From Cytophagales bacterium (GTDB lineage Bacteria; Bacteroidota; Bacteroidia; Cytophagales; Microscillaceae), in contig JAAFIN010000147.1 of the NCBI GenBank assembly GCA_013297825.1, forward strand, positions 1 through 12,746: 12,746 nt of DNA, in the 5' to 3' direction. Positions 1 through 6,081 of this stretch are shown one piece after another (the first letter of the stretch is position 1; every line of letters begins with the position of its first letter). The notes beneath the pieces are model-generated. The model was given only the letters and a program-made list of their open reading frames with translations. It was not told the origin of the DNA and did not search any database. Position numbers and translations under genes: made by a program.

Positions 1-1012
1 CTAACAACATTCCCAAACCTCCGCCCAAAGTCGCACCAGCAACTACCGCCCCAAATATTTCCAAAGGGTGAGCTTTTACGCTTTGCGAAAAAATAATAGG
101 TTGCACCAAAACACTATCCAACGTAATTGCAAGCACAAAAGCAGGCAACAAATGCCCCAAAGCTACCCCAAAATCCCACAAAGTACGTGCTTCTTGTGTG
201 TCTGTTGAAAGCGTAACCACACTCGCAAACACAAAACCAATTCCAACACCTAAATACGGAATAAGATTAAAAACCGCCACAAATATCGCAATCGTAAAGG
301 CATATTTTACCCCAAAAATACTTAACCCAATCGCCAACACCACAAAGAAAATGCCTATTTGCATCATCAAACCCAACAAATAACTACGCAATAATACTTC
401 TATTTTGTACAAAGCAGTAACTACTACCTCAAAATACGCATTGGGAATTACTGCTAAAAATTGCCTTCGCAAAAGATTTTTTTCATACAAAAGCATAAAT
501 GTCAAGAAAAAAACCGCACTCGCATACACCAATACCGAACCTGTAACAGACAAAATATTTTGTAAAATATGACTAAAATCCAAACTTTTTACAAATTGGG
601 TACTTAATACTGTAAGTTCATTGAGCAAAAAACCTGCTTTGCGATTAGGATAAACATTTTTTATCAAAAAATTTTCTATGGAAGATAATGGATTTTGGAA
701 AGCATTTATCACATCTTGGTAATTGATTTTTTGTAAAATAATTGCTTGTTCGCTGATAAGTGGCACTAACATTCCCACAAAAAACGCAGGCAACAACACC
801 AACACCACCAAACTTATAATTACCGCAAGCATACGAGGAATTTTTACACCAAAAATGCTGTGCCTTACCAAAAATTCGGTTAAAGGTCGCAAAATAGATG
901 TAATAAATGCAGATAATAATAAATATGTGAATAAACTTTGAAAATAATAAAATCCAAAACCTATTGCCAAAAAAATCAAAAATATCGTAATTGTACGCTT
1001 TGAAGGCAACAT
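1..1012 (-). CDS. AI-2E family transporter (UPF0118/PerM-like permease); the C-terminal end runs off the window start, so the CDS is partial
   Basis: I translated the minus strand by hand from the ATG (reverse complement of 1010-1012) to position 2. This gives 337 aa with no stop: MLPSKRTITIFLIFLAIGFGFYYFQSLFTYLLLSAFITSILRPL...AVFNLIPYLGVGIGFVFASVV...LEIFGAVVAGATLGGGLGMLL. It is a multi-helix hydrophobic protein with the characteristic NLIPY(L/I)G motif of AI-2E transporters. It is absent from the ORF track only because its stop codon lies outside the window. Confidence 0.75.
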   Translation of the reverse strand, partial: MLPSKRTITIFLIFLAIGFGFYYFQSLFTYLLLSAFITSILRPLTEFLVRHSIFGVKIPRMLAVIISLVVLVLLPAFFVGMLVPLISEQAIILQKINYQDVINAFQNPLSSIENFLIKNVYPNRKAGFLLNELTVLSTQFVKSLDFSHILQNILSVTGSVLVYASAVFFLTFMLLYEKNLLRRQFLAVIPNAYFEVVVTALYKIEVLLRSYLLGLMMQIGIFFVVLAIGLSIFGVKYAFTIAIFVAVFNLIPYLGVGIGFVFASVVTLSTDTQEARTLWDFGVALGHLLPAFVLAITLDSVLVQPIIFSQSVKAHPLEIFGAVVAGATLGGGLGMLL

Positions 1013-1046: not shown

Positions 1047-1620
1047 TTAAAAATTCTCCCAATAAGATTTAAAATTAGGATAATATTTTTCTAATGCAGT
1101 TTTGATTTCTTTTTTTAAAGCAAAAAATTCATTTTTGAAATCTTTAAAATCAAAAGTAATTTTATTTTCAGAAATATTTTTATCTACTAAATATATTTTA
1201 TCATTTTCACACAAAAATTCTAAATTAAAATTTTGGTGCATACTTTTGATATTAAATACTTGTTTTTGTTGTTTTTCTAATTTTTCTAATAAAAATTCTA
1301 ATTGCACAACAAGATAAATATATTTTATCATTTTCACACAAAAATTCTAAATTAAAATTTTGGTGCATACTTTTGATATTAAATACTTGTTTTTGTTGTT
1401 TTTCTAATTTTTCTAATAAAAATTCTAATTGCACAACAAGATAAAAAACTTCTGCATTTTTGATTTCAATTTTTTTCTCTGGATTTTGAATTTCCTGAAT
1501 AATTAGATTGCTGTATGCTAATTCTGTGGAAAAGCTATCACTATCCAAATCATTTGGGTCTATGTCTTGGTTTTCATTAGCCCAAATTTCTGCATCAAAT
1601 TCAAAAGTAAATATTTTCAT
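1047..1620 (-). pseudogene. Hypothetical protein gene (ancestral product about 148 aa) split by a perfect 127-bp tandem duplication that introduces a +1 frameshift. The ORF-track entries 1252..1620 and 1047..1337 are its two halves.
   Basis: Both listed ORFs share the identical 44-aa block YLVVQLEFLLEKLEKQQKQVFNIKSMHQNFNLEFLCENDKIYL. The 5' ORF runs into garbage (SCCAIRIFIRK...) straight after the block, while the 3' ORF continues sensibly (VDKNISENKITFDFKDFKNEFFALKKEIKTALEKYYPNFKSYWENF). The two frames differ by 1 nt, and 127 mod 3 = 1. Removing one repeat copy restores a single 447-bp ORF. I recognise no known domain. Confidence 0.6.
1188..1441. repeat. Perfect direct tandem duplication, 2 x 127 bp (copy 1 about 1188-1314, copy 2 about 1315-1441; boundaries ambiguous by about 5 bp)
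   Basis: A direct read shows 1191-1313 and 1318-1440 are identical base for base (atatattttatcattttcacacaaaaattctaaattaaaattttggtgcatacttttgatattaaatacttgtttttgttgtttttctaatttttctaataaaaattctaattgcacaacaag). The offset is exactly 127 bp. Confidence 0.85.
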
Positions 1621-2054: not shown

Positions 2055-2100
2055 TTTAAACTTTGAACCTTAAACCTTAAACCTTGAACCTTAAACTTTC
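2051..2100 (-). repeat. Heptamer array in inverted orientation (TTRAACY x about 6). It forms the right arm of the composite repeat element and is an imperfect inverted repeat of 1626..1683.
   Basis: The reverse complement of 2051-2100 is gaa agtttaa ggttcaa ggtttaa ggtttaa ggttcaa agtttaa aactt. These are the same heptamer types as the left arm, in opposite orientation. The array abuts the stop codon (2100-2102) of lpxC/fabZ. Confidence 0.75.
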
Positions 2101-3491
2101 TAAGATTTCCTCACAATACTTGCAGAAAGCACCGCTTCACACACAAGTCCGCCACGCACATACGCCTCGCCTTTCATTTTGGCAATACCTCTGCGAATAG
2201 GATACAACAATTCACATTGAAAAGTAATAGTATCACCAGGTTGCACCATTTTTTTAAATCTACATTCATCAATAGAAAGCAAATATGCCCAATAATTTTC
2301 AGGGTCAGGCACCGTACTAAGCACCAAAATCCCCCCTGTTTGAGCCATTGCTTCTATTTGCAACACACCAGGCATTACAGGATTATTTGGGAAATGCCCC
2401 ATAAAAAAAGGCTCATTGATGGTTACATTTTTGATGCCTGCCACGCTTGTATCGTCCAAATGATAAATTCTATCCAACAATGCAAATGGGTATCTGTGTG
2501 GAAGAATATTAGCAATGTGCTTCACGTCCATCAAAATAGGCATATTTGGGTTATAATCAGGAATACGTTTTTTGCTTTCAAGAAGCATAGCTTGTCTGAT
2601 TTTTTTGGCAAGACCAACATTTGCAGCGTGTCCAGGACGAATTCCCATAATTTGGGCTTTTAGTGGTTTTCCTACAAGTGCAAGGTCGCCAATCACATCA
2701 AGGAGTTTGTGGCGAGCAGGTTCATTTTTAAATCTAAGCGTAATATTGCTTAAAGTACCTTCTTTGTCAATGGTAATTTTTGGTTTGCCCATTAGTTTAG
2801 CAAGTCGGTCAAGTTCTTCTTCTGGGAGGATTTTATCCACAATTACAATGGCATTATCCACATCACCACCTTTTATAAGATTAGCATTAAAAAGTGCTTC
2901 CAATTCGTGCAGAAACACAAAAGTACGACAATTCGCAATTTCATTTCTAAATTCTGAAATATGGCTAATGCTTGCGTGTTGGTTATTTACGATATTTGAA
3001 TTATAATCTACCATTACCACCACACGATAATCATTGAGAGGCATTGCTGAAATTTCTACGCCTCTTGCTTGGTCAGTAAATACAATATTTTCTTTTACTT
3101 CATAATAAATTCTTAAAGCATCTTGTTCTTGCAATCCTACACTTTCCAATGCTTCCACAAACATAATAGAACTTCCGTCCATAATAGGTGGTTCTGCTCC
3201 ATCAATTTGAATAAGCAAATTATCAATTCCCAATCCTACCAATGCAGCAAGCGTATGCTCTACAGTATGTACTCTTGCACCATTTTGTTCTATGGTCGTA
3301 CCACGTGAAGTATCCACTACATTGTCCGCAAGGGCATCAATAATGGGCTGATTAGGTAAATCCACCCTTTGAAACTTGTAACCGTGATTAGGAGGTGCAG
3401 GCACAAAAGTCATAGTAGTTAATGCCCCAGTATGAAGTCCTACACCTGCTACTTTTACGGATTGCTGAATGGTACATTGTTTGTGGCTCAT
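2100..3491 (-). CDS. lpxC/fabZ: Bifunctional UDP-3-O-acyl-N-acetylglucosamine deacetylase / 3-hydroxyacyl-ACP dehydratase (LpxC/FabZ fusion, as is typical of Bacteroidota)
   Basis: The ORF is 463 aa. The N-terminal about 300 aa are LpxC-like ([27 protein letters not shown]..., [10 protein letters not shown]..., zinc-deacetylase fold motifs). The C-terminal about 150 aa are FabZ, carrying the hallmark [13 protein letters not shown] and [23 protein letters not shown] motifs. Confidence 0.9.
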
Positions 3492-3561
3492 AATTTATTT
3501 AAGAATTAGTTTTTTTTATAAAAAAACGAATTTATGTAAAATCAAATGTTGTGATTATTTG

Positions 3562-3594
3562 AAACCTATAAGGTTTTAAAAACCTTATAGGTTT
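3562..3594. promoter_or_regulatory. Perfect 33-bp palindrome (16-bp arms around a single central A) in the lpxC/fabZ upstream region. It is a candidate operator for a dimeric regulator.
   Basis: aaacctataaggtttt a aaaaccttataggttt. The arms are exact reverse complements. It lies about 70-100 bp upstream of the lpxC/fabZ ATG at 3491. It has no clean flanking T-run, so it is not a classical terminator. Confidence 0.4.
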
Positions 3595-3696
3595 ATAACG
3601 CTGAAAATTATTATTTTTTTGTGCAAAATTCCATTTTTAAAACACAAAAAAAAACTTTTTTTAAAAAATTAGCAAAATTTTATGAAACTTTTAAAC

Positions 3697-3768
3697 TTTA
3701 AAACCTTGAACTTTTGAGCTTTTTGAACTTTTGAACCTTTGAGCTTTTTGAGCTTTTGAGCTTTTAAA
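3697..3768 (-). repeat. Degenerate array of CTTTTGAR / TTGAACY units. It belongs to the same heptamer family in inverted orientation and overlaps the stop codon of the OMP gene.
   Basis: aaccttgaa cttttgag ctttttgaa cttttgaac ctttgagc tttttgag cttttgag cttttaaaac. The reverse complement gives (C)TCAAAAG / GTTCAAG units, as in the arrays at 1626 and 11457. Confidence 0.5.
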
Positions 3769-5799: not shown

Positions 5800-6036
5800 T
5801 TTTTTTTATAAAAAGTTGTATAAAATTTTTAGTGATTTAACATTGCAAACCTACATATTTATTTTTGATTATTTAAAAACTTTTTACCAAATGCCATTTT
5901 GAATTGATGAAATGTCATTTTTAATAAACAAAAGTGTTAAAATCATTTTTTTAAAAATTATTTTTTTATTAAAAAAAAAACCTGTATTTTTAGAAAGATT
6001 TTATAAATCAAAAGGTAATTAAATACCCTAATTTTT

Positions 6037-6078
6037 AATTTCTCATTCTTAATTCCTAATTCTTAATTCTTAATTATT
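6037..6078 (+). repeat. Six tandem AATTCYT heptamers ending 4 bp before the MVP start codon
   Basis: aatttct cattctt aattcct aattctt aattctt aattatt, then tact ATG. The period of exactly 7 was verified by the positions of 'aattc' at 6051, 6058 and 6065. Confidence 0.7.
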
Positions 6079-6081
6079 ACT

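Follow-up and report, generated by a model that had tools for sequence, protein, structure and literature searches.

Replication slippage leaves a short microhomology at the junction as its trace, and recombination between direct repeats makes a perfect tandem repeat of 127 nt unstable by its nature. In Streptococcus pneumoniae, phase variation of cap3A proceeds by tandem duplication (Waite et al. 2001; summarised in PMC11163986). As regards assembly, the largest SPAdes k-mer is 127 (PMC8048387), and SPAdes contigs have been reported to bear 127-bp overlapping ends that had to be removed manually (PMC6232296).

The window analysed here, which is the entire 12,746-nt Cytophagales contig JAAFIN010000147.1, bears a perfect 127-nt tandem duplication within a small gene and resembles each of these systems in part. 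Just as in cap3A, a perfect tandem duplication inside an ORF abolishes the reading frame, and the gene would be restored if exactly one copy were lost; here, however, neither on/off states nor recurrent duplications nor a phenotype were observed, and the event may not even exist in the cell. Of the defining features of phase variation, only the duplication itself could be shown for this locus. With the young pseudogenes created by slippage or microhomology it shares the TAAA at both ends of the unit, the out-of-frame insertion and the undiverged copies, although a 4-nt microhomology says little in DNA that is 78% A+T. With the k-mer-length redundancy of SPAdes contigs it shares the length of 127 nt, the perfect identity and the boundaries devoid of a biological signal. 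The documented case, however, concerns the ends of circular contigs, whereas the two copies of the present contig adjoin each other in its interior, the contig does not represent a rotated circle, and the identity continues for 4 nt beyond 127. The two live explanations, graph-assembler redundancy and a slippage pseudogene, are both well-known and ordinary kinds of event; the former had already been named as a possibility in the first-pass annotation of this DNA.

The duplication and the split gene

Positions 1188–1314 and 1315–1441 are 100% identical over 127 nt and lie head to tail. A repeat search, TRF and a direct string comparison all confirmed this duplication, which had been described in the first-pass annotation; the TRF row covers 1188–1445 with a period of 127, 2.0 copies and 100% matches. 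The identity goes past the 127-nt unit by 4 nt rightward and by 0 nt leftward: the TAAA at 1442–1445, a feature without strand, repeats the first four nucleotides of the unit (1188–1191 and 1315–1318), and the longest exact repeat of the whole window is 131 nt (the 127-nt unit plus TAAA). Since the per-base match probability in the 21% GC stretch around the duplication is only about 0.33, the 127-nt identity did not arise by chance. For the 4-nt extension the chance is about 0.0125–0.015 per side, or about 0.03 for both sides together, and the TAAA may represent either a junction microhomology or a chance extension. The junction between the copies reads ...ATTGCACAACAAGA|TAAATATATTTTATC... in the record, with ACAAGATAAATAT as the diagnostic word; with the flanks given in a second form it reads ...CACAACAAGA|TAAATATATTT..., and it arises only from two adjacent copies.

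As recorded, the small gene occupies positions 1047–1620 of the minus strand (574 nt) and is frameshifted, with the ATG at 1620 and the stop codon at 1047–1049. Relative to the gene, the copy at 1315–1441 (minus strand) lies on the 5′ side and starts at nt 180 of the gene, in codon 60, while the identical copy at 1188–1314 (minus strand) lies on the 3′ side. The upstream ORF, P0001 (1252–1620, minus strand), starts with the ATG and encodes 122 aa, namely the native residues 1–102 followed by an out-of-frame tail of 20 aa. The downstream ORF, P0002 (1047–1337, minus strand), encodes 96 aa from a GTG (86 aa in the public record) and holds the native residues 60–148. The two ORFs overlap and share an identical block, as had been noticed before, but the block comprises 43 aa (residues 60–102 of the reconstructed protein) and not 44. 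In public protein data, P0001 and P0002 occur only on this NCBI contig, and a word-indexed protein search matched nothing but the contig's own two fragments.

When one 127-nt copy was dropped, a clean ORF of 447 nt was obtained, i.e., 148 codons and a stop, in full agreement with the earlier proposal that an out-of-frame duplication had split an ORF of about 148 aa. The collapsed gene has no other lesion and keeps all 17 residues that are invariant in its family. Its stop-free run of 149 codons exceeds anything seen in 2000 shuffles of the 21% GC DNA, where the mean was 51 and the maximum 111.

The reconstructed protein and its relatives

HMMER, run as a full scan over 1.84 billion representatives, retrieved five homologues with E-values from 2e-36 to 1e-9: P0003 (153 aa), P0004 (148 aa), P0005 (162 aa), P0006 (199 aa) and P0007 (170 aa). 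Alignment to the reconstructed protein is collinear for all of them, at 27–54% identity; 17 residues are invariant, and the SxHQxFxL motif formed by invariant residues falls inside the duplicated block. The prediction had been that related genomes would carry the orthologue as one intact ORF of about 447 bp, and indeed each of the five homologues, 148–199 aa in length, contains the block once. Within this comparison the duplication is private to the present contig, since all five are single-copy across the duplicated block; none of them comes from the same species, so that they make a weak test for recurrent duplications in other strains.

Further searches left the family at this size. A profile search added no members, and neither a peptide pattern nor a degenerate DNA pattern for MHQNFNLE picked up relatives in metagenome scans. 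Homologues were not found in viral contigs, plasmids or phages, and the small gene and its neighbours in the window were absent from 80 genome loci around LpxC/FabZ. On a JGI contig (L101, from sample 3300080909), which is syntenic on the other side of LpxC/FabZ and 89% identical to the window in DNA over that gene, the sequence 'ATGAAAATATTTACAT' (MKIFT...) appears about 100 nt past the LpxC/FabZ stop, and the contig breaks off 16 nt into the gene; this is the same gene start as that of the small gene in the window, at the same position.

P0005 comes from GCA_031425615.1, a Cytophagales MAG. With 90% aa identity, the LpxC/FabZ of this MAG is the nearest one found, whereas the small protein is 39–42% identical to its counterpart there. 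The neighbours of the small gene also vary: LpxC/FabZ and an AI-2E family transporter in the window, DUF4139 and GATase in L081, SpoIIE and a TonB-dependent receptor in L082. Judging from these comparisons, the small gene evolves fast and its neighbourhoods differ among relatives, and it may be dispensable. A CdiI-like polymorphic-toxin immunity protein was considered as a candidate identity on account of CdiI fold matches, and it was ruled out because no toxin gene adjoins any member.

AlphaFold2 was run on the six-sequence alignment and returned a confident model (pLDDT 88.7, pTM 0.84). The 148-aa protein is predicted to adopt a PUR/Whirly-like fold with two beta-beta-beta-beta-alpha repeats, a likeness in fold only, with no family assigned. 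In the model, the duplicated block takes in the central helix together with three strands belonging to the second half, and P0001 would be devoid of the last strand and the long C-terminal helices. The domain search suggested in the first-pass annotation was carried out: Pfam, NCBIfam, PADLOC and PDB-sequence searches gave no family match for the reconstructed protein or its homologues, none of the six family members had a Pfam hit at E ≤ 1, and Foldseek gave no significant match, the best being human PURA (E 0.05, TM 0.47). The protein thus differs from PUR-alpha/Whirly-like proteins in lacking a sequence-level match to the family models, and also in its acidity: its pI is 4.65 (4.3–5.6 across the members), in contrast to typical nucleic-acid binders.

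Taken together, the five homologues, the high AlphaFold confidence and the stop-free run beyond that of 2000 shuffles allow us to conclude that the reconstructed 148-aa ORF is a real, conserved, single-copy gene. P0001 and P0002 are best treated as pieces of one 148-aa protein. A by-product of the work is the definition of a tiny uncharacterised protein family, with about six members in public data and a predicted PUR/Whirly-like fold.

These data also bear on the idea that the two overlapping ORFs are functional as they stand, as separate products or through programmed frameshifting. The downstream ORF does span the complete second beta-beta-beta-beta-alpha half of the predicted fold. Nevertheless, the homologues are single ORFs with the block present once in five cases out of five, the copies are identical in DNA, so that no selection has acted on the arrangement, and there is neither a slippery site nor a separate family for either half. 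We regard a functional two-ORF arrangement as close to refuted and give it hardly any credence.

Assembly or mutation as the origin of the second copy

Assembly is suspected mainly because the period of the duplication, 127, is exactly the largest SPAdes k-mer, a correspondence missed in the first-pass annotation; that SPAdes was used here at k = 127 is our assumption. When a de Bruijn graph is constructed with k = 127, neighbouring pieces overlap by exactly 127 bases, and two pieces written in succession with the shared word left untrimmed would yield X-U-U-Y, where U is a perfect 127-nt repeat. We infer this untrimmed join from the workings of de Bruijn graphs. If so, the extra 127-nt copy was made by the assembly and not by the cell, the organism's gene would be intact, and the annotated P0001 and P0002 would be spurious fragments. 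We lean slightly to this explanation, giving it about an even chance, the origin being otherwise an ordinary mutation. In its favour, the collapse restores a lesion-free ORF, the small gene is the only broken one among about 12 genes of the window, and the homologues are single-copy. Moreover, the contig passes cleanly through the 125-nt exact repeat at 1757/1883, the sole longer exact repeat being the 131-nt one; this clean passage fits a k of about 127, but long reads or read pairs would do equally well.

An origin in assembly has difficulties of its own. Within contigs SPAdes itself removes k-overlaps, and the explanation therefore requires some joining step outside the standard procedure. 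The TAAA beyond the 127 nt would have a chance of only about 0.03 under a pure k-overlap join. In addition, the lineage is full of tandem repeats, and only 440 nt from the duplication a 126-nt unit occurs twice with one mismatch, so that a real duplication of such a size is not far-fetched. Literature searches for an artefactual internal duplication of k length turned up only the terminal 127-bp case.

The best-known route to a k-length duplicate is a circular contig rotated without trimming. This route was rejected for the present contig: the end-to-start join gives '...GMLLD*' and not the AI-2E C-terminus '...GMLLAIPIYT...'. A search for a terminal overlap between the contig ends at k = 21–141 found none.

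The main competitor, which we hold to be a serious one though somewhat short of even, is a real and recent duplication. Replication slippage, or else an unequal exchange, involving the two TAAA tetranucleotides that lie 127 nt from each other would have frameshifted the gene and turned it into a young pseudogene, with codons 60–102 doubled, the gene inactivated, and a product consisting of residues 1–102 and a 20-aa nonsense tail. The 4-nt junction microhomology, expected in about 3% of cases by chance under the artefact model, argues for such an event, and so do about 20 TRF rows in the window, including the 126-nt super-unit with one mismatch at 1757–2007, which point to a lineage prone to events of this kind. 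The zero divergence and the absence of any other lesion fit a very recent duplication, and a de Bruijn assembler running with k = 127 would pass a single time through the loop formed by a real duplication of this length and so write exactly two copies; a fast-evolving small gene in varying neighbourhoods may also be one that the cell can lose. On the other hand, a period of exactly 127 would then have come about by a chance of roughly one in several hundred, and the other genes of the window are undegraded. By a rough estimate, the likelihood of a period of exactly 127 is about 0.002 for a real duplication and several tenths for a k-overlap artefact. The choice is thus between a coincidence of period of about 1 in several hundred and a coincidence of microhomology of about 1 in 30, with uncertain priors. 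The 'gene inactivation in progress' proposed in the first-pass annotation goes beyond the data, as nothing here favours inactivation over an artefact.

Independent data on the strain are available to a limited extent. A Logan contig (L087, run SRR9948921), assembled with a much smaller word size, is 100% identical to positions 2070–3590 of the window; given this identity, SRR9948921 holds short-read data of the same strain. A literature search for this run found nothing. The intact 148-aa protein was not found in public assemblies, Logan included, an absence that is nearly uninformative since, of nine other window proteins looked up, only three occur in Logan in exact form.

A duplication that is real could also act as a reversible switch, as the first-pass annotation had suggested, with the duplicated state off and the collapsed state on, the collapse being a recombination of the 127-nt repeats that removes exactly one copy. 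It is true that the loss of one copy restores the exact wild-type ORF, and cap3A provides a precedent for the mechanism. However, there is no sign of two states or of a mixed population, nor of recurrent duplications in the five homologues, and the gene is a small one without a known function or phenotype. Reversibility, besides, is common to any tandem duplication and is in itself no proof of a switch. We therefore consider that the suggestion over-reads the sequence, and rate a switch as improbable. Even a little less probable, in our opinion, is the fuller version in which the real duplication is one state of a duplication/collapse switch acting on a conserved, lineage-restricted PUR-like protein in a lineage prone to duplications of about 126–127 nt, this proneness being postulated because the 126-nt super-repeat adjoins the gene.

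The importance of these findings lies mainly in data hygiene. If the extra copy is an assembly artefact, two spurious entries (122 aa and 86 aa) replace one intact 148-aa member of a small family in the databases, and further 127-nt joins may sit in the same assembly. If the duplication is real, it would be one more young pseudogene made by slippage, an ordinary event.

The adjoining spacer and other features of the window

Downstream of the small gene lies an AI-2E family transporter gene (1–1012, minus strand), which is cut by the contig end, and upstream of it, on the same strand, a bifunctional LpxC/FabZ gene (2100–3491, minus strand). The small gene and LpxC/FabZ are separated by an AT-rich spacer (1621–2099, no strand) of 479 nt with about 11% GC. 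The earlier statement that the gene lies directly beside a repeat-rich spacer holds: its ATG (1620) is 4 nt from the first spacer repeat (1624). The spacer has inverted arms, 1624–1687 and 2056–2099, composed of heptamer repeats (GTTTAAG/GTTCAAA) and 82–93% complementary, and between the arms a 42-nt unit is repeated 8.7 times, with a super-period of 126 nt. No mechanistic link between the 127-nt duplication and this adjoining spacer was found.

Within the array, at 1757–2007, a 125-nt exact repeat occurs at a spacing of 126 (1757 and 1883), so that a 126-nt super-unit, slightly short of 127 nt, is duplicated almost perfectly; the repeat bears both on the guess of the assembler's k and on the local duplication rate. 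The relative L101 has a spacer of only about 100 nt here, beginning with (TAAGAAT)x4, and for this reason the array of about 380 nt is lineage-specific and has the look of an insertion or a local expansion.

Short tandem arrays with units of 7–8 nt are present in further intergenic regions as well (3686–3765, 6027–6079, 10797–10840 and 11461–11521), and the (TAATTCT)x7 at 6027–6079 corresponds, as its reverse complement, to the heptamer that follows LpxC/FabZ in L101. The word AAGGTTYAAAG, with one mismatch allowed, occurs 14 times in the window against 1.7 expected, almost always in intergenic positions, and the exact 13-mer AAGGTTCAAAGTT is absent from 100 related loci. By the look of these words, the intergenic repeats seem to form a lineage-specific family. 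A perfect 14-nt tandem repeat (TTTTAGGTTTCTTT x2) is located at 1014–1042, in the 34-nt gap between the stop of the small gene and the start of the AI-2E gene.

Apart from LpxC/FabZ (90% identical in amino acids), the closest genome found (L001, L002) has no gene in common with the window across 6 kb to the left and to the right, and its copy of the small gene is found at another site, flanked by genes for a SpoIIE phosphatase and a TonB-dependent receptor. As far as can be judged from these loci, gene order is heavily rearranged between near relatives. Rfam and tRNA scans for RNA genes in the window were empty.

On the plus strand, the window encodes a small protein (11955–12383) that carries a C-terminal sorting domain of type IX secretion and a leucine-rich-repeat-like protein of 476 aa (9373–10803); together with LpxC/FabZ, these place the contig in Bacteroidota (Cytophagales). 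An 829-aa protein encoded at 6082–8571 (plus strand) has Pfam matches to the shoulder domain of the major vault protein (E 1e-31), to a vault repeat and to SPFH/Band 7, and these identify it as a bacterial homologue of the major vault protein of eukaryotes.
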